DNA from: an uncultured Gemmatimonadales bacterium
GTDB lineage: Bacteria > Gemmatimonadota > Gemmatimonadetes > Gemmatimonadales > GWC2-71-9
Assembly: GCA_963739455.1 (NCBI GenBank)
Contig: CAVUAK010000001.1
Coordinates: 1,664,001 to 1,728,000 of the forward strand
Length of the DNA: 64,000 bases
Direction of reading: 5' to 3'
Made by a program: the position numbers and the translations under genes. The notes below the pieces were generated by a model that saw only the letters and a program-made list of their open reading frames with translations, was not told the DNA's origin and ran no database searches. Of this stretch, positions 17,591-30,954 are shown piece by piece (the stretch's first letter is position 1; each line of letters starts with the position of its first letter).

Positions 17591-17592
<2 letters not shown>
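17555..17592. repeat. 21-bp unit intergenic repeat, locus 3
   Basis: CTTACGCTGTTGCAGTTCCCC CTTACGCCGTTGCGGTT immediately after the rho stop. Confidence 0.75.
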
Positions 17593-18838
<1,246 letters not shown>

Positions 18839-19008
18839 GGAGGGACTCCAAGCGGGTCGGAGCCGCCACAGGGCGCGGCGGTCAGCAACGGAGGGTTGGG
18901 GAAAGGCTCAGCAACGTGAAAGAATTAATGGCGGCAGGCGCAGAACGGCGTCACTCAGCCATCAAGGTTGTCTGGGGGAGCAAAGGTGTACGGGGCTTGA
19001 CAGGGGAT

Positions 19009-19038
19009 AACGTAAGGTGCGTCCTGTCATGTCGTCAA
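19009..19038 (-). promoter_or_regulatory. Putative sigma70 promoter of rho
   Basis: TTGACG (19038-19033), 18 nt, TACGTT (19014-19009); gives a ~165-nt C-rich leader. Confidence 0.5.
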
Positions 19039-19067
19039 GAGGGCGTGCCCCTGGCCCCTGGCACCGG

Positions 19068-20318
19068 GTGAACCGCCGAACCGCGTCCTTCGCCGCGGCC
19101 CTCATGGTCGTGGCCGTCCTCCTGCTCACCCTTTGGCCGCTTCCCGAACAGGCCTACCGGTCGTCACTCTCGCCCGTGACCTGCCTGGTTTGCGGCGACC
19201 AGGGCGTTCAGGATGTCTTCCAGAACATCATCATGCTGCTGCCGCTCGGCCTGGCCCTCGGCCTGGCTGGCGTGCGGCCCGGCAGGGCGGCGCTCGGTGC
19301 GTTCGGGCTCGCGGTGCTGGTGGAGTCGCTGCAGTACACTGTCGTCCCTGGCCGCGATGCGAGCCTGAGCGACGTGCTGACGAACACCGTTGGAGCGGCA
19401 CTCGGAGCGGCGATTGCACCGCATCTGCCGACGCTCCTGCGTCCGGGACGCCGTGCCGCGGCGGCCCTTGGCGTCATGGCAATAGTATGCTGGGCGTCAG
19501 CCTGGCTATTCGGTGCCTGGGCGTTGCAGGGAAATATTGGCGCGGGGCACTGGCGCGGGCGGTTCCCAGGAGACCTGCCTGACGCGCCTGCCCTGAACGG
19601 CGAGGCTCTGCGCGCGAGCATCAGTGACGCGCCCCTGGCACGGGTCCCGGCAACCCTGCCGCTCAGTGTCGAGCAGGGGTTCGCGCGCGACTCGTTCTCG
19701 CTGCATGTGGAGGCCAGGCCGGGCCCGCCAATCGCATGGCGTGAGAATGTCGTCACCATCATCGATTTCCGGGACAATGGTGGGGACGCCAACAACAGCC
19801 TTGTCATGACACTGAACCGCGTGCGAACTCGCGCGCTCCTGACCTTCCGGATCAACGCGGCGCGGGCGCGGCTCCGAACACCGAGCTTCAATCTCGGCCC
19901 GGCTTTCGATGTGCCGCCCGGCGGTGACGTGTCGCTTCAGGTGTCCAGGCAGCGGGGGACGCTGCACGCCGAAGCACAACGTGGCGGACAGTCGCTCGTC
20001 ACGGAGTATCGCATCGGACCCGAGCTCCTCTGGAGCGTCATGGCGCCCCGAACCCCGTGGCCGGGCCCGGTGTGGATGGTTGAGGCATTCCTCTGGGCGG
20101 CGGCACTGCTGGGAGTCGGCGGATACTGGGTCGGTCGCTCGCGGTCCGCAGGTATCCTCATCCTCGTGCTGGCCCTGTCGGTTTCGGTACAGCTCCTGAC
20201 GCCACGCTTCTTCGCCGTAGCGCCGCAGTCGCTCCTTGGCTGGATCATGCTTCTGGGCGGCTTTGTCATCGGCGTCTTCGTGGGCCGCCGAAACGCTGCC
20301 CCGGCTCCTGACTCTTAA
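19068..20318 (+). CDS. VanZ-family membrane protein with periplasmic beta domain
   Basis: LLLTLWP, DVFQNIIMLLPLG, VESLQYTVVPGRDASLSDVLTNTVGA. Start may be 19017, 19029 or 19068. Confidence 0.8.
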   Translation: MNRRTASFAAALMVVAVLLLTLWPLPEQAYRSSLSPVTCLVCGDQGVQDVFQNIIMLLPLGLALGLAGVRPGRAALGAFGLAVLVESLQYTVVPGRDASLSDVLTNTVGAALGAAIAPHLPTLLRPGRRAAAALGVMAIVCWASAWLFGAWALQGNIGAGHWRGRFPGDLPDAPALNGEALRASISDAPLARVPATLPLSVEQGFARDSFSLHVEARPGPPIAWRENVVTIIDFRDNGGDANNSLVMTLNRVRTRALLTFRINAARARLRTPSFNLGPAFDVPPGGDVSLQVSRQRGTLHAEAQRGGQSLVTEYRIGPELLWSVMAPRTPWPGPVWMVEAFLWAAALLGVGGYWVGRSRSAGILILVLALSVSVQLLTPRFFAVAPQSLLGWIMLLGGFVIGVFVGRRNAAPAPDS

Positions 20319-20337
20319 CTCTTAACTCTTAACTCTC
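20311..20337. repeat. ACTCTTA heptamer x3-4
   Basis: ACTCTTA ACTCTTA ACTCTTA ACTCTC; provides the VanZ stop. Confidence 0.8.
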
Positions 20338-20345
20338 GACTGCCC

Positions 20346-20690
20346 ATGCCCAGAGCGCTCCAGGCCGTCATCCTGCTCATCTTCTCAAACATCTTCATGA
20401 CCTTCGCCTGGTACGGCCATCTCCGTACGCTGGCCGACCGACCGTGGTACCTGGCCGCGGTTGTGAGCTGGGGTATCGCCCTCTTCGAGTACCTGCTGCA
20501 GGTGCCGGCGAACCGTATCGGATACACCGTGATGACGCTGCCCCAGCTCAAGGTGACCCAGGAGGTCATCACGCTGCTGGTGTTCGTCCCCTTCGCCATC
20601 GTCTACATGAAGCAGCGAATGCACTGGGATTTCGCCTGGGCGGGCCTCTGCCTCCTCGGCGCGGTGTACTTCGTCTTTCGCCCCAAGTGA
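20346..20690 (+). CDS. DMT family small membrane protein (DMT_6-like)
   Basis: SNIFMTFAWYGHL, SWGIALFEYLLQVPANRIG, QLKVTQEVITL. Confidence 0.9.
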   Translation: MPRALQAVILLIFSNIFMTFAWYGHLRTLADRPWYLAAVVSWGIALFEYLLQVPANRIGYTVMTLPQLKVTQEVITLLVFVPFAIVYMKQRMHWDFAWAGLCLLGAVYFVFRPK

Positions 20691-20709
20691 CGCCGAATGG
20701 CGCGAACGC

Positions 20710-20743
20710 AAAAAGGGCCGCATCCGTGAGGATGCGGCCCTTT
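20710..20743. terminator. Bidirectional intrinsic terminator
   Basis: AAAGGGCCGCATCC-gtga-GGATGCGGCCCTTT perfect 14-bp stem between convergent genes. Confidence 0.9.
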
Positions 20744-20760
20744 CGACGTTCCCTGAAGAA

Positions 20761-20970
20761 CTACTTCTTCCGGGCGACGTTCTCGGCGGCGGGACCCTTG
20801 GCCCCCTGCACGATGTCGAACTCAACGACCTCGCCCTCGCTCAGCGTCTTGAAGCCCGAGCCCTGGATCGCCGAGTGGTGCACGAAGCAGTCCTTCTCGC
20901 CGCTGTCAGGAGTAATGAAACCGAAGCCCTTGGCGTCGTTGAACCACTTCACCTTGCCGGTGGTACGCAT
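20761..20970 (-). CDS. Cold-shock protein (CspA family)
   Basis: [19 protein letters not shown]...[16 protein letters not shown]...KGPAAENV. Confidence 0.97.
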
Positions 20971-21281
20971 GTGAAACCCTTTCAAAATGACTTGTGCTGT
21001 CGGGTGTCCGGACATGCCGTACCCACCGACTGCTGGCGGAAACAACCCTCCGCCGTGGGTGCGGTCACTCGACCGCGATGGCTAGACACAATGAGAGGAC
21101 CTAGGATGGTCCCAGGTCCTCTTGGAAGAATCTGGCCATAACTGCTCGCGCACCAGCGCGAACCGCAACAATGTACCGTACCCGGCCCCGGTTTGCAATC
21201 GGCCCCTATTCCGGGACGCCTTGGAGTCGAATTCGCCATCTTTGGGGCCCCGCCTGCAGGGCCTCCCCGACCTGGAGAATC

Positions 21282-23059: not shown

Positions 23060-23791
23060 ATGAACCGTCGTCTGGCTCGTCTCGCCGTTGCGATGTTACT
23101 GTGGGCAGTGCCGGTTCGCGCCATCGCACAGAACGTCCCCGCCGAGGGATGGAAGTTCACCATTACGCCCTACTTTCTGTTCCCGAACATGAGCGGAACT
23201 GTCACCGTGGGGCCGGTCGTGTCGGATATCGACGCCAGTCCCGGCGACATCTTCAGCAACCTGCAGTTCGGGTTCATGCTATCGGCTGAGGCGCGGAGCC
23301 CTGAATGGGCCATCGGGTTTAACTCAGTGTACATGGACCTGAGCAAGGACGGTCAAAAACTCGCGACCCAGTTCGATGGCTATCAGGGGAGTTTTGAGCT
23401 CACGGGGTTTCGCCGTCTCATGCCCTGGTTCGAGATCCTGGCTGGCGGCCGCCTCAACATCATGGGGGCGAGTGCCAAGCTGCAGCCAGTGGGCACCGTG
23501 TTTAACAAGGACATAGCCTTCTTCGACCCGTTTCTCGGCGCCCGGTTCACCGTCCCGAACACCGGCAAGTGGGACATCATGTTGCGGGGCGATGTCGGCG
23601 GATTCGGGGTGGGCTCGCAGTTCACCTGGCAGCTGCGACCGACGGTGTCATATCGCCTGTCAAAGCTCGTCTCCGTTGGCGCCGCATATTGGATCTTCAG
23701 CGTGGACTACGACCAGGGCACCGGCATCGACTACTTCAAGTGGGACGTGACGACATTCGGGCCGGAAATCGGCATCTCGTTCACGTTCTGA
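23060..23791 (+). CDS. Outer-membrane beta-barrel protein
   Basis: AGGAG RBS, signal peptide, WKFTITPYFLFP, DPFLGAR, RGDVGGFG, C-terminal GPEIGISFTF (terminal Phe). Confidence 0.85.
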   Translation: MNRRLARLAVAMLLWAVPVRAIAQNVPAEGWKFTITPYFLFPNMSGTVTVGPVVSDIDASPGDIFSNLQFGFMLSAEARSPEWAIGFNSVYMDLSKDGQKLATQFDGYQGSFELTGFRRLMPWFEILAGGRLNIMGASAKLQPVGTVFNKDIAFFDPFLGARFTVPNTGKWDIMLRGDVGGFGVGSQFTWQLRPTVSYRLSKLVSVGAAYWIFSVDYDQGTGIDYFKWDVTTFGPEIGISFTF

Positions 23792-23835
23792 GACTCCAGC
23801 ACCTGACGCAGCATCCCTGAGCAAAGGAACCCAAA

Positions 23836-24544
23836 ATGACTCCCCACACGGTGCGCCTGGCGCGGCACCTGCCGCTGGCCGGACTCTCCCTGCTCCTGCT
23901 CGCCGCCGTTGCCCCGGTCGCCACGGCGCAGGCCCCGAATCCCGGCCAGATGGCCGATGCCTATGCGACAGGCGCCAAGGCGAACGCCCAGTTGATGCAG
24001 AAGTACACCTGGAAGATGCGCGTGCAGCTCACCTATAAGGGCGAGCAGAAGCCGGCCTCGCTCTACCAGATGAACTATGTGGGCGGCCAGCTGCAAAAGA
24101 CGCTCATCAGCGCGCCGCCGGAGGAATCAGGCAGGAAGCACGGCATCAAGCACCGCGTCACGGAAGACAAGATGGCGGAGATCAAGGGTCAGATTGACTC
24201 ACTGGTCGACCTGACCAAGAAGTACATGGCGCCCACACCAGGCCAGATGTTCGACTTCTACTCCAAGGCGACCATCGGGCCGGCCCCGTCCGGCGGGGTT
24301 CAGGCGTCGGGAACCAACTTCGTCCAGCCGGGCGACCAGGTGACCTACTTCATCGATCCTGCCACCAAGAGTCCCACGAGCTTCAACTTCTCGTCGGCGC
24401 TGCAGGGCAAGCCCGTCACCGGCACGGCGACGTACGCCCAGGTGCCCGGCGGCCCCAAGTACGCATCGCAGCTGACGATCAACGACCCGACCGACAACCT
24501 GTCGGTGGCGGTGACCAATTTCGAGTACGTGCTTGAACCAGTAA
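23836..24544 (+). CDS. Exported hypothetical protein, paralog A
   Basis: Signal peptide ending VATA-Q. True end is probably VLNQ* (TAA 24542-24544), as in paralog B, after removing one extra T at ~24533. Confidence 0.8.
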
Positions 24545-24571
24545 CCATCATTTGCGGCGATGGAGGATGGG

Positions 24572-25251
24572 ATGAGACAGGTGCTGATGTCGGTGGCCGT
24601 GCCTGGCGGCGGCAACGGGGTCGGTGGCGCACGCCCAGACCCCGAACCCGGGACTCGCGGCTGACGCCTACGCCACTCATGCGAGGGCGAACGCCCAGCT
24701 GATGCAGAAGTACACCTGGAAGATGCGCGTCCAGCTCACCTACAAGGGCGAGGACAAGCCGGCGCAGCTCTACCAGTTGAACTACGTCAACGGGCAGCTG
24801 CAGAAGACGCTGCTCAGTGCCCCGCCAGCCGAGACCGGGCGGAAGCACGGCATCAAGCACCGCATCAAGGAACAGAAGATCGACGAGTTCAAGGCGTGGG
24901 CCGCGCAGCTCACCGACCTGGTCAAGCGCTACATGTCGCCATCTCCCGGCACCATGATGGACTTCTACTCCAGCGCCACCTTCAGCCCGATGCCCAGCGG
25001 CAACGTGCGCGCGACCGACACCGGCTTCATCCAGCCCGGCGACACCGCGACGTACTGGATCAATCCAGCCACGAAGCAGCCCGTCGACGTACGCCTTCGC
25101 GACGTCGCTGCAGGGCGACGCGGTCAATGCCACCGTGACGTTCGGCCAGGTGCCGGGCGGGCCGCAGTACGCATCGCAGGTGAACATCTCCGTGCCGGCG
25201 AAGGAAGTGTCGGCCACGATCACGAATTTCAACTTTGTCCTGAACCAGTAA
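24572..25251 (+). CDS. Exported hypothetical protein, paralog B (frameshifts ~24602 and ~25084)
   Basis: GGAGG then MRQVLMSVAV/LAAATGSVAHA-Q. Shares ANAQLMQKYTWKMRVQLTYKGE, GQLQKTL, GRKHGIKHR, DFYS, QVPGGP.YASQ and VLNQ* with paralog A. Confidence 0.8.
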
Positions 25252-25269
25252 CCCAGGGTCAATCACGTG

Positions 25270-27555
25270 ATGCGGTACTGGAGATCAGCTCTTGTGGGCG
25301 CAGCAGCGGCGCTGTCACTGGTCGTCGCTCCGCCCGCGAACGCGCAGGAAGTGACACAACTGAGCTGGCCCCGCACGCGCATTGCCCCCAACGGCATGCA
25401 AGTCACGCTCTTCCAGCCCCAGGTGGACTCGTGGAGCTACTACGTCGTCCTCGACTACCACATGGCAGTCGAGCTCCAGCTGCCCGGCGCCTCCTCCTCG
25501 GTGCCCGGGGCGCTGTTCATGACCGGCGAGACGAGTACCGATCTCGAGTCGCAGACCGTGGCGCTCTACAACCAGAAGATCGTCAGGGTGAACTTCCCCG
25601 GCCTGGATGCCGCCACGGCGCAGCAGTATCAGGACGCGCTGCAGTCGCTCGTTCCTGTTGGCACGATGCACCTCTCGCTGCCGCAGCTGCAGAGTTACGC
25701 CGCGGCCGCAAGCGCCTCGGCGGCAACCGCAGGCTCTCCGCCCGCTGCCGCAGGGCCCAATCCGCGCCCTACGGGCTTGCCGCCATCCCTCGCGCAGCCG
25801 GCGCCGCCGATCTACTACAGCCAGTCTCCGGCGATCCTCGTCATCTTTTCGGGCGCGCCCGCGTTTGCTCCCGTGACGCAGGGCTCCAAGCTCTTCTTCT
25901 CCGTGAACACGAACTGGGCGGTGTTCCAGGACAAGACCACGGGCACGTACTATCTGCAGGACCAGGCCAGCTGGCTTCAGGCGCAGAACGTGAACGGCCC
26001 CTGGCAGCCGGCGGCGCAGTTGCCGTCCAGCCTGAAGAACCTGCCGCAAAACGCCGAGTGGAGTGACGTCAACAAGAACATCCCCGGCATGTCCTGGTCG
26101 CCGTCGCAGGTGCCCCAGGTGTTCGTGAGCCAGAAGCCCGCGGAGCTGATCCTGGTGCAGGGGGGGCCGCAGCTCGAGGCGATTCCAGGCACCTCGCTGT
26201 CGTGGGTCACCAACTCCGACAGCGACATTTTTTACTACACGCCGACGGCCCAGTGGTATTTCCTCGTGTCGGGACGCTGGTTCAGCTCACCGACCCTTGG
26301 TACGGGGCCGTGGACCTTTGCGACGACGAGCCTGCCGGCTGACTTCGCGAACATCCCCTCGGATAGCCCGCGTGCAGCGGTGCTCTCATCCGTGCCTGGC
26401 ACCCCCGAGGCCAACGAGGCGGTGGCCCAGGCCCAGATGCCGCACAAGGCCGACGTGAACATTGCGACCACCACCGTAAGCGTTGTCTACGGTGGACCGC
26501 CCCAGTTCACGCCCATCAGCGGCACCACCATGCAGTACGCCACCAACACGTCGTACCAGGTCATCCAGGCCAACGGTAGCTACTACGTCTGCAGCAATGG
26601 GGTCTGGTTCGTGTCGCAGTCCCCGAATGGCCCGTTCGCCGTGGCTACCGTGGTGCCGCAGGTCATCTATACCATTCCGCCGTCGTCGCCGATGTACAAC
26701 GTCACTTATGTGCAGGTCTACGACGTCACACCAACGACGGTCACCGTGGGCTACACCTCGGGCTACAATGGCGCCTACGTCGCCGCGGGCGTGGTGATGC
26801 TCGGCGTCGGCATGGCGATGGCCTACAGCTATCACCCGTACTATCCGCCCGGTTTCGGCTATCCGGTCTACTACCATCCGCCGTATCCCTACACCGGCTA
26901 CGGGTATCACGCCGCGTACAACCCCTATACCGGCGCGTATGCGCACGGATACTCGGCGTACGGCCCGTATGGCGGGGCCAGCGCGGGCGCCGGATACAAC
27001 CCGAGCACCGGCACATACGCGCGCGGGGCGTCGGCGACGGGCCCGTATGGGTCGGCGGCCGCCGCGCAGGCCTACAACCCGCGCACTGGTGCGAGCGCCG
27101 AGACCTACCAGCATTCGAACGCCTATGGGTCGTATGGCTCGTCCGTCGTGTCGAAGAACGGCGAGACGGCGTGGACCAGTCACTCATCCAACGCCTACGG
27201 AACATCGGGAACCGCGCAGACGTCTGATGGCGGCAAGGCAGCGGGCGTGTCGACCGCAAATGGCACCACGGCGGCGGGCAAGACGGCGGACGGCGACCAG
27301 TACGCGACGCACGATGGCAACGTCTACAAGAACACCGGGAGTGGCTGGCAGCAGGGAAGCAGCAGCGGCTGGAGCGACGCGCAGAAGCCGTCGGAGACCG
27401 CGAACGACCAGGCTGCGCGCAGTTCGGCCGCCACGAAATCGTCGGCGACCAGCTCGTGGCAGGGCGGGGGCGGCAGCCGCTACAGCGGCGGCAGCAGTGG
27501 TGGGTACAGTGGCGGCTACAGCAGGGGTGGCGGTGGTGGCGGCGGCCGGCGCTGA
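25270..27555 (+). CDS. Large exported repeat protein with Gly/Tyr-rich tail, paralog C (resembles proteins auto-annotated 'carbohydrate-binding family V/XII')
   Basis: Signal peptide; WPR...FQPQVDSW; three ~70-aa modules ending GPW/GPF; YNPxTG repeats; GGGGRR end. Confidence 0.8.
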   Translation: MRYWRSALVGAAAALSLVVAPPANAQEVTQLSWPRTRIAPNGMQVTLFQPQVDSWSYYVVLDYHMAVELQLPGASSSVPGALFMTGETSTDLESQTVALYNQKIVRVNFPGLDAATAQQYQDALQSLVPVGTMHLSLPQLQSYAAAASASAATAGSPPAAAGPNPRPTGLPPSLAQPAPPIYYSQSPAILVIFSGAPAFAPVTQGSKLFFSVNTNWAVFQDKTTGTYYLQDQASWLQAQNVNGPWQPAAQLPSSLKNLPQNAEWSDVNKNIPGMSWSPSQVPQVFVSQKPAELILVQGGPQLEAIPGTSLSWVTNSDSDIFYYTPTAQWYFLVSGRWFSSPTLGTGPWTFATTSLPADFANIPSDSPRAAVLSSVPGTPEANEAVAQAQMPHKADVNIATTTVSVVYGGPPQFTPISGTTMQYATNTSYQVIQANGSYYVCSNGVWFVSQSPNGPFAVATVVPQVIYTIPPSSPMYNVTYVQVYDVTPTTVTVGYTSGYNGAYVAAGVVMLGVGMAMAYSYHPYYPPGFGYPVYYHPPYPYTGYGYHAAYNPYTGAYAHGYSAYGPYGGASAGAGYNPSTGTYARGASATGPYGSAAAAQAYNPRTGASAETYQHSNAYGSYGSSVVSKNGETAWTSHSSNAYGTSGTAQTSDGGKAAGVSTANGTTAAGKTADGDQYATHDGNVYKNTGSGWQQGSSSGWSDAQKPSETANDQAARSSAATKSSATSSWQGGGGSRYSGGSSGGYSGGYSRGGGGGGGRR

Positions 27556-27561
27556 CAAATC

Positions 27562-29820
27562 ATGAAGTCATTGATGAGGGTCGCGGCATCGTTCGTCCTG
27601 GCGCTCTCGCTGGGTGTGTCGGTCGCGCGCGCGCAGTCCACCAACGAACTGGCGTGGCCGCGAACGCTGACTGCACCCGACGGCATGCTGGTGACGTTCT
27701 ACCAGCCCCAGGTTGACTCCTGGGAATACTACGCCGTCCTCGACTACCACATGGCCATCGAGGTGCAGTTTCCCGGTGCCTCGTCAACTGTTCCCGGCAC
27801 GCTCCGGATGACTGGCCAGACAAGTACCGACGTCACCCGCCAGACGGTGGCACTGTACGACCAGACCATCGTCAGCACCACCTTTCCCGGCACCGACCCC
27901 GGGACAGCGCAGCGATACCAGCACGTCGTGCAGTCGGTCATCCCCACCGGGACGATGAACCTGACGTTGCCGCAGGTGCAGGCCTACATGGCCAGCACCA
28001 CGCCAGCGGGCGTCACCTCTGGTCCACCGCCGGTCGCAGCCGGGCCCAACCCCAAGCTGTCACCCGGCCTGCCGCCCACTCTGCCCCAGCCCGCGCCCCC
28101 GATCTACTACAGTGAGTCGCCGGCCATCCTCGTCATCTTCGAGGGCAAGCCTGGGTTTGCGCCGGTGGTCTCGGGGTCGAAGCTCTTCTTCTCCGTCAAC
28201 ACCAACTGGGCGGTTTTTCAGGACAGGACCAGCGGCACCTACTACCTCCAGGACCAGGCGAGCTGGCTCCAGGCGCAGGACGTGAACGGTGCGTGGCAAC
28301 CGGCGGGGCAACTGCCGGCGAGCCTGTCGAAGCTGCCGGCCAACGGCGAGTGGGACGACGTCACCAAGAACATCCCCGGCATGTCATGGGGCCCCGGGAC
28401 GGTGCCGCAGGTCTTTGTGAGCCAGAAGCCGGCAGAACTCATCCTGCTCGATGGGCCGGCGGAACTTCAGCCGGTTCCCGGCACATCACTCTCGTGGGTT
28501 ACCAACACCGAGAGTGACCTCTTCTTCTATACGCCGACGTCCACCTGGTACTACCTCGTCTCGGGTCGGTGGTTCGCTGCGAGCGGCATGAATGGTCCCT
28601 GGACCTTTGCCACCAACAACCTGCCCGGCGACTTCAGGAATATCCCGGCAGACAGTCCGCGCGCCGCGGTCCTGTCATCCGTGCCTGGGACACCGCAAGC
28701 CAGCCAGGCGGTGGCCATGGCCCAGATGCCGCACAAGGCCGACGTCGACATCGCGACCACCAACGTGAACGTGCAATACGGCGGGCCACCGCAGTTCGCC
28801 CCCATCCAGGGCACGCCAATGCAGTACGCCACCAACACGTCATTCCAGGTGATCCAGGCCAACGGCAGCTACTACGCCTGCAACCAGGCGGTCTGGTTCA
28901 ATTCGCAGTCGCCCAATGGGCCGTGGGTCGTGGCCACTGCGGTGCCACAGGTCATCTACACCATTCCGCCGACGTCACCGATGTACAACGTGACCTACGT
29001 GCAGATCTACGATGCGACGCCCACGACAGTCGTTACCGGATACACCGCCGGTTACAATGGCGCCTTCGTTGCCGCTGGCGTCGTCATGCTCGGCGTCGGG
29101 ATCGCCTGGGCCGCCACCAATCCGTACTATCCGCCGGGATTTGGCTATCCCGTCTACTACCATCCCCCGTATCCGTACGGCGCGTATGGCTATCACGCGG
29201 CGTACAACCCGTACACCGGCGCCTACGCACACGGCATGACGGCGTACGGTCCGTATGGTGGCCGCAGTGCCGGCGCAGCGTACAACCCGTCCACCGGCAC
29301 ATACGCTCGCGGTGCCTCCGTGAGTGGACCGTATGGCTCTGCCGGCATGGCGCAGGCGTACAACCCGCGCACGGGGGCCAGTGCAGAGAGCTATCAGCGC
29401 TCGGATGCATACGGTTCCTACGGATCGTCCGTCGCATCGAAGAACGGGAATACCGCGTGGGGAGCCCACGCCAGTACTGCCAATGGCAATACCGCCATTG
29501 GTGGGGTGAACAACAACATGTACGCCTCGCACGACGGCAACGCATACAAGAACACCGGCAGCGGCTGGCAGCAGGCGGGCAGTGGCGGCTGGAGCAACGC
29601 GTCGAAGCCGAGTGAGTTCGGCAATGACGAGGCCGCCCGCTCCGCCTCGTCACTGGGCGATTCGAACCTCGACTCCTGGCGCAGCGGCGGGGGTGGCGGC
29701 TTCGGTGGTGGAAGCGCTGGTGGGGGCTGGGGCCGGAGCGACGGAGGTGGCTTCGGCGGTGGCGGCTTTGGGGGTGGTGGTGGTGGCTGGGGCCGGGGCG
29801 GTGGCGGGTTCCGCCGCTAG
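27562..29820 (+). CDS. Large exported repeat protein with Gly/Tyr-rich tail, paralog D
   Basis: Colinear with paralog C, with long identical blocks (GSKLFFSVNTNWAVFQD, AQMPHKADV, YYPPGFGYPVYYHPPYPY); ends GGGFRR. Confidence 0.8.
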   Translation: MKSLMRVAASFVLALSLGVSVARAQSTNELAWPRTLTAPDGMLVTFYQPQVDSWEYYAVLDYHMAIEVQFPGASSTVPGTLRMTGQTSTDVTRQTVALYDQTIVSTTFPGTDPGTAQRYQHVVQSVIPTGTMNLTLPQVQAYMASTTPAGVTSGPPPVAAGPNPKLSPGLPPTLPQPAPPIYYSESPAILVIFEGKPGFAPVVSGSKLFFSVNTNWAVFQDRTSGTYYLQDQASWLQAQDVNGAWQPAGQLPASLSKLPANGEWDDVTKNIPGMSWGPGTVPQVFVSQKPAELILLDGPAELQPVPGTSLSWVTNTESDLFFYTPTSTWYYLVSGRWFAASGMNGPWTFATNNLPGDFRNIPADSPRAAVLSSVPGTPQASQAVAMAQMPHKADVDIATTNVNVQYGGPPQFAPIQGTPMQYATNTSFQVIQANGSYYACNQAVWFNSQSPNGPWVVATAVPQVIYTIPPTSPMYNVTYVQIYDATPTTVVTGYTAGYNGAFVAAGVVMLGVGIAWAATNPYYPPGFGYPVYYHPPYPYGAYGYHAAYNPYTGAYAHGMTAYGPYGGRSAGAAYNPSTGTYARGASVSGPYGSAGMAQAYNPRTGASAESYQRSDAYGSYGSSVASKNGNTAWGAHASTANGNTAIGGVNNNMYASHDGNAYKNTGSGWQQAGSGGWSNASKPSEFGNDEAARSASSLGDSNLDSWRSGGGGGFGGGSAGGGWGRSDGGGFGGGGFGGGGGGWGRGGGGFRR

Positions 29821-30954
29821 GCGGTCACCGCCCGGAGCGCCGTGCAGAACTGCTTCATTTCTTCTGGAGTGCCCACCGTTATGCGGGCATAGTTGGGCCA
29901 CACCGGCCAGCTTCGTCCGATCAGCACATTCTGCTCCCGCATGGCGGTCGCGAGTTCGGCTGCCGGGCGCTTCGCGTCGAGCATGAAGCAGTTGCTCACC
30001 GCCGGGTGGAACCCGTAGCCGTACTTGGTCAGGAAGGCGAAGGTCTCCTCGCGCGCCTGCTTCGTGTAGGCCCGCCGGGTTGGCACCAGCGTCGGGTCAT
30101 CGATGCTGACCCGCGCTGCCGCGACTCCCGTAATTGAGCTGATCGTTGAGCCGTACGACCGCAGCTGGTCGAGCACCGGCGGCTGGGCGATTGCCAGCCC
30201 CATCCGAAGCCCCGCCATGCCGTACAGCTTGGAGAAGGTCCGCAGCACCAGCAGGTCCCCGTGCGTATCGACCAGGTCCACCACCGACACCTCGTCACTG
30301 AAGTGGATGTAGGCCTCATCCACCAGCAGGATCGAGCCCGCCGGCTTGTTCGCCAGTGCCCAGATGATCTGCTCGCGTGGCGTGGTGGTGCCGGTAGGGT
30401 TGTTGGGATTGCAGATGTAGAGCAGCCCCGCGTTGGGGCTCGCGGCGCACATGGCGCCGGCATCGTGCGCGAGCGTGGACGTCAGCGGCACCGCGATGGC
30501 GGGAGCCCCCGAAATCTTCGCCGCCTGCCAGCCCGCCTCGAAACCAGGTTCGCCATACACATACGGGCGATTCGGGCCGGTGAAGGCCAGCACCGCGCGA
30601 TGCAGCGGGTCACTCGATCCGTTGAAGGTTTCGACGTATTCCGGCCGCAAGCCCCTCGAGTTCAGCGATACGCGTCCGCAACTCCCGGTCGGCCTGGAAG
30701 GCGTAGCGGCCATCCTCCGCCCCAAGCTGTTGCATCGCATCGAGAGCCGCCCGCGACGGGCCGAGCGGGTTCTCGTTGGAGTTGAGCCGGACAGCGCCGG
30801 CTGGAGGCCGGGTTCGCAGGGCCGCGTAGGCGAGCTCGCCCTCGCTCGACCCCCGGGGCAGGGCGAGCCCCGCCGCCGCCAGGGCCATCAGCCGGGAGAA
30901 GTCGCGTCGCGATACGCCAGCCGGCATCGGGGGCAATTCACTTGGATTTGGCAT
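29817..30954 (-). CDS. Tat-exported PLP-dependent aminotransferase, HisC-like (frameshift ~30650)
   Basis: SRRDF Tat motif, LNSNENPLGP, YICNPNNPTG, VDEAY, RTFSKLYGMAGLRMG, RITVG. Confidence 0.88.

Follow-up and report, generated by a model that had tools for sequence, protein, structure and literature searches.

What do five adjacent genes for secreted proteins, none of them belonging to a recognised family, contribute to the envelope of an uncultured Gemmatimonadales bacterium? The genes lie in a 64,000-nucleotide stretch of assembly GCA_963739455.1 (contig CAVUAK010000001.1, positions 1,664,001 to 1,728,000 of the forward strand), here called the window, and they encode a small outer-membrane barrel, two paralogs termed A and A', and two larger paralogs termed B and B'. 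We propose that one or more copies of A together with B make up an envelope module of two protein families, A(n)-B, that acts as a carrier-scaffold pair for lipid-like cargo. We give this reading a probability of about 0.4, based on two predicted lipid-transfer folds that are repeatedly adjacent and sometimes fused, while barrels are optional. The module is built from known, here predicted, lipid-transfer folds, and is undescribed in the literature that we searched.

A sequence-only reading of the window had described the genes as tightly spaced, co-oriented and coding for secreted, undescribed proteins, and these points were confirmed. All five genes are on the + strand with intergenic gaps of 7-45 bp, inspection of each protein reveals an N-terminal hydrophobic stretch with AxA-Q at its end, and no Pfam or NCBIfam family scores above cut-off for the barrel, A, A', B, or B'.

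Predicted folds of A and B

The AlphaFold2 model of A, with a predicted local distance difference test score of 93.5, is an unclosed, amphipathic antiparallel beta-sheet whose strands keep a single hydrophobic side, with helices over the concave hydrophobic face. In searches with Foldseek and VIA-align, the top rows were members of the LolA/LolB superfamily, matched over residues 7-207, and the Atlas indicates the same clan. The predicted fold is therefore like those of LolA, LolB, LolA3, NE2245, DUF1329, TP0789-like, RseB-N, LppX/LprG, and DUF2092 proteins, but A lacks a sequence match to models of this superfamily and lacks a lipobox, and its partner B is not a lipoprotein. Pfam and NCBIfam models of LolA, LolB, DUF2092, DUF1329 and MucB_RseB were unmatched by A and 52 relatives, a profile search of the PDB with A was empty at E<=1, and profile comparison with a neighbouring DUF2092 protein found no match (probability 2.9%). 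Lipobox-like motifs occur in just 4 of 103 and 5 of 135 A homologs. Judging by the model, A and its relatives (1,177 representatives at E<=0.001) constitute a LolA-fold family that is new and distinct from canonical LolA, and A may bind acyl chains or other hydrophobes. The earlier suggestion that A is a carrier or chaperone fits this predicted fold. A role in canonical Lol lipoprotein trafficking is not supported, given the near absence of lipoboxes on A and B and a canonical LolA encoded separately, elsewhere in the genome (G000).

B is predicted to consist of a TULIP-like head, three ~100-amino-acid aromatic repeats with conserved W/Y and a GPW motif, a Tyr/Pro/Gly linker, a Gly/Tyr beta-meander, a small DGNVYK domain, and a Gly/Arg tail, in a layout carried over from a model of B' (71% identical). 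Conserved hydrophobic residues alternate in the head. Its identity to YceB, a bacterial TULIP protein of DUF1439, is 6%, and unlike YceB (171 amino acids) it is shorter, unlipidated, and joined to three repeats and a meander. What had been taken for a Gly/Tyr low-complexity tail is for the most part conserved and periodic, and is predicted to fold as a beta-meander of 8 strands; low complexity, of Gly/Arg type, is confined to the last ~50 amino acids. Several B homologs carry Pro/Arg-rich sequence in place of the meander, and only 2 of 113 have a lipobox-like motif. The family comprises at least 3,106 proteins in Gemmatimonadota, Acidobacteriota, Planctomycetota, and Pseudomonadota, and is without a Pfam or NCBIfam model. 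Members from Ensifer, Paraburkholderia, and Pseudoalteromonas, which can be cultured, make B amenable to experiment. The abstract of PMC6791001 names three bacterial TULIP families. If the B head is a TULIP domain, it adds one more to the few in bacteria.

The aromatic repeats raise the alternative that B binds glycan or peptidoglycan, and that A and B capture a polymer for nearby sulfatases. RefSeq names 3 of 40 plasmid-collection matches of B 'carbohydrate-binding family V/XII', the conserved W/Y and GPW motif of the repeats would suit such a role, and several loci have sulfatases in the vicinity of A or B. However, neither CBM_5_12 nor any other carbohydrate-binding module (CBM) in Pfam matches B, B', or 46 homologs at E<=0.05-0.1; CBMs are absent among the structural matches listed, which barely cover the repeats; and genes for a sulfatase, a SusC/D pair, or a glycosidase are missing from the present locus. 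We consider glycan capture very unlikely, and the 'carbohydrate-binding' name unsupported.

Other relatives of B occur in different settings. A third, distant B homolog in this genome (G000:C3:437727-440051, also L028:9727-12051; 35% identity) resides directly 3' of an AcrB-type gene and has a Pro/Arg-rich region instead of the meander. B homologs are likewise linked to AcrB in L029, L035, L047, L048, L051, and L053. Small Planctomycete proteins (L142:3707-4501, L144:3772-4935, and L145:1078-1446) consist of one or two copies of the aromatic repeat behind lipobox-like N-termini, and a Pfam search with them was empty.

Linkage of A and B

Linkage was assessed in 64 loci with A, from 7 genomes and 57 metagenome contigs, of which 14 were left out for short downstream sequence. 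Among the 50 kept, B starts <=2 kb downstream of A in 29, is elsewhere in the locus in 2, and is unseen in 19, two of which end within a DUF1254 gene. When loci are clustered at 70% identity, 5 of 13 clusters have B within 2 kb downstream, and the order A then B is strict in 5 separate clusters. Moreover, among 150 A representatives listed, 4 combine A and B in one chain with a linker between them, all full-length and each from a different 50% cluster. Across the phylum (151 genomes), A is found in 7 genomes and B in 18, including all 7 with A; the two are adjacent in two of these, and in the other five, all from a single genus, they are separated by 11-23 kb. Of the three families expected to be linked in other genomes, A and B are linked beyond this genome and the barrel is not a fixed partner. 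A-B linkage is real but partial, and the barrel-AA'BB' layout is lineage-specific.

These data also bear on whether A and B are a dedicated pair. They could instead belong to a loose island whose envelope genes (DUF1254/1214, DUF3313, DUF4136, DUF3300, DUF2092, sulfatases, glutaminase, and small barrels) are accessory and independent of one another, brought together by co-regulation or co-transfer, probably under stress, and we regard this as possible. The freely mobile barrel would be expected of such an island. Several further observations favour it and at the same time weigh against a carrier-scaffold pair: the same families are reshuffled around A and B, A is fused to several of them, and B is mostly found without A. 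In the phylum of a Planctomycetaceae record (G176), 31 of 201 genomes carry B, which is full length in 23 of them, and one other genome has A; A is in none of 301 genomes from the phylum of a Rhodopila record (G177), nor in any of 5 B-bearing genomes. Yet a loose island does not readily account for the strict gene order, for fusions from four different clusters, or for B in every A-bearing genome of the phylum, although 5 of the 6 other genomes represent one genus.

As a carrier-scaffold pair, the two proteins might work as follows. A, with its predicted LolA fold, would likely be a soluble periplasmic carrier, and B the scaffold, whose predicted TULIP-like head could take or give cargo that is a lipid or another hydrophobe. 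A and B would presumably be in contact, and the Tyr/Gly-rich C-terminal half of B might keep it at the membrane or wall surface. Extra copies of A, having arisen more than once, likely provide wider specificity or higher dosage. The barrel, B', DUF1254/1214, and the gene upstream of the run would be accessories that come and go. If true, coupling and fusion of A and B would unite two lipid-transfer folds in one module. The pairing also offers a first experimental entry point to the envelope domains of unknown function (DUFs) that recur around it. A bolder version, which we consider unlikely, is an undescribed pump-free periplasmic lipid relay: LolA-fold A would dock on a new bacterial TULIP family, whose repeats and meander anchor or polymerise at the outer membrane, and would serve B, DUF3300, DUF6515, and Gly-zipper proteins as interchangeable scaffolds. 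Such a relay, if true, would explain what an entire guild of envelope DUFs does.

A domains are fused to DUF3300, DUF6515-like, Gly-zipper, SHOCT, and DUF1344/CusF-like repeats in P0440, P0394, P0478, P0372, P0386, P0418, P0433, and P0383. The partner in P0440 is DUF3300, whereas fusions to DUF6515 and Gly-zippers score below cut-off; P0364 and P0386 have two A domains each.

Neighbours were scanned in a hand-picked subset of called genes, which identifies recurrent families but not their frequencies. Recurring near A or B are DUF1254/1214, DUF3313, DUF4136, DUF3300, DUF2092 with a DUF6515-like gene, and Gly-zipper proteins, as well as Phenol_MetA_deg and other barrels, sulfatases, AcrB-type pumps, PLA1, patatin, PqiA, and glutaminase. 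DUF3300-DUF2950 and DUF2092-DUF6515 pairs in these neighbourhoods are likewise secreted and of unknown function, and co-localisation of DUF3300 with DUF2950 is reported in an earlier paper (PMC4653623). DUF3300 has a Gly/Arg tail resembling that of B (79% probability, tail only), but single-sequence comparisons found no homology between the folded domains of B and DUF3300 or a DUF6515-like protein. One B homolog resides in an island (L134:1735-15455) with glutaminase, an Asp-Ala exchanger family permease, DUF4136, and DUF3011, which is suggestive of acid-stress genes. The sole DUF1254 match of the present genome (L169; G000:C1:154955-158335) is far from the cluster, beside Phenol_MetA_deg and DUF2490-like barrels.

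Composition of the five-gene run

Among seven congener loci, A-A' and B are present in all, B' in three, and the barrel in two; a DUF1254/1214 gene separates A' from B in three, and the complete five-gene set is in none. B', previously seen as a regular member of an AA'BB' layout, is therefore optional. The barrel had been assigned the role of a fixed pore, yet in the other five congeners its ortholog is unlinked, elsewhere in the genome, and a barrel is nearby in only 8 of the 50 informative A loci (some contigs are short upstream). Its homologs match OMP_b-brl in 14 of 81 cases and end in F in 112 of 120; the barrel itself has a weak Phenol_MetA_deg match (E 0.012), and a PDB search with its profile was empty at E<=1.

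This affects the model first proposed for the locus, a fibre or adhesin in which B, as a surface or matrix subunit, polymerises via the Gly/Tyr beta-meander, A chaperones a hydrophobic segment of B through the periplasm, and the barrel exports B. The operon-like secreted genes, the barrel, and a Gly-rich repetitive beta-forming segment do resemble Curli (Csg) and Fap systems. However, family matches are lacking (curlin, CsgG, and other curli Pfam models are unmatched at E<=0.1 among genes of the locus), the barrel is missing from most loci and has no PDB relative at the threshold above, and the meander is replaced in several homologs. Subunit size and folds also differ: a 760-amino-acid chain of several domains does not resemble the subunits of curli or Fap. 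With no curli or Fap component found and predicted folds that indicate lipid handling, the pore, chaperone, and subunit logic is not favoured; a curli-like reading is poorly supported and the fibre model quite unlikely.

The two paralogous pairs are genuine, and A and A' form separate clades across the genus (support 100/100 and 99/91). The A triplets of L068 and L069 and the A pair of another genus have independent origins. Long identical blocks, earlier taken as a sign of heteromers, do exist at the protein level, but at the DNA level identity extends over at most 31 bp in A/A' and 27 bp in B/B', and identical residues with degenerate codons share the codon in 162 of 342 cases. Because most blocks coincide with family-consensus motifs and the DNA is synonymously diverged, we interpret the blocks as reflecting purifying selection, not heteromers. 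Many loci have a single A beside a single B, so heteromers are not required; A/A' or B/B' heteromers are possible but not indicated.

Three +1 insertions shift the reading frames of A and A' relative to the intact copies in L057 and L044. One near 24533 causes the stop of A to be read through, extending the open reading frame to 24702, and those near 24600 and 25085 split A', including its signal peptide. Since both genes are unbroken in 6 of 7 congener loci and intact at 94-95% identity in L057, which has the complete five-gene layout, and since frame shifts affect at least 6 of 36 gene positions tested in this assembly, assembly error is the likely cause.

Features of the run and its flanks, in window coordinates
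Feature	Coordinates	Strand	Remarks
Conserved block: rho, VanZ-domain membrane protein, DMT_6 gene, cold-shock gene	17591-21045		upstream of cluster
Co-oriented upstream gene, 609 aa	21171..23000	+	N-terminal barrel-like part and His-rich C-terminal part, read by sequence inspection
Small outer-membrane beta-barrel, 243 aa, C-terminal Phe	23060..23791	+	optional neighbour
A, secreted protein with predicted LolA/LolB-superfamily fold, ~235 aa	23836..24544	+	
A', paralog of A, ~225 aa	24572..25251	+	~62% identical to A in intact relatives
B, secreted, 762 aa	25267..27555	+	7/7 congener loci
B', paralog of B, 752 aa	27562..29820	+	optional, 3/7 congener loci; meander region ~22 aa shorter than that of B
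Aminotransferase class I/II gene	29817-30954	-	twin-arginine-like N-terminus; frameshift-split near 30600

The upstream gene lies 59 bp before the cluster and occurs at 6 of the 7 congener loci, against 2 for the barrel. Pfam, NCBIfam, and PDB sequence searches with its product were all empty, and its association appears to be limited to this genus. The C-terminal motifs HVLHRQ, YHWLQ, and LHMMHD of this secreted protein are possibly metal-binding. At the other end, the five-gene run (23060 to 29820) is closed by the convergent aminotransferase gene, and a break similar to the one in this gene is present in the relative L039.
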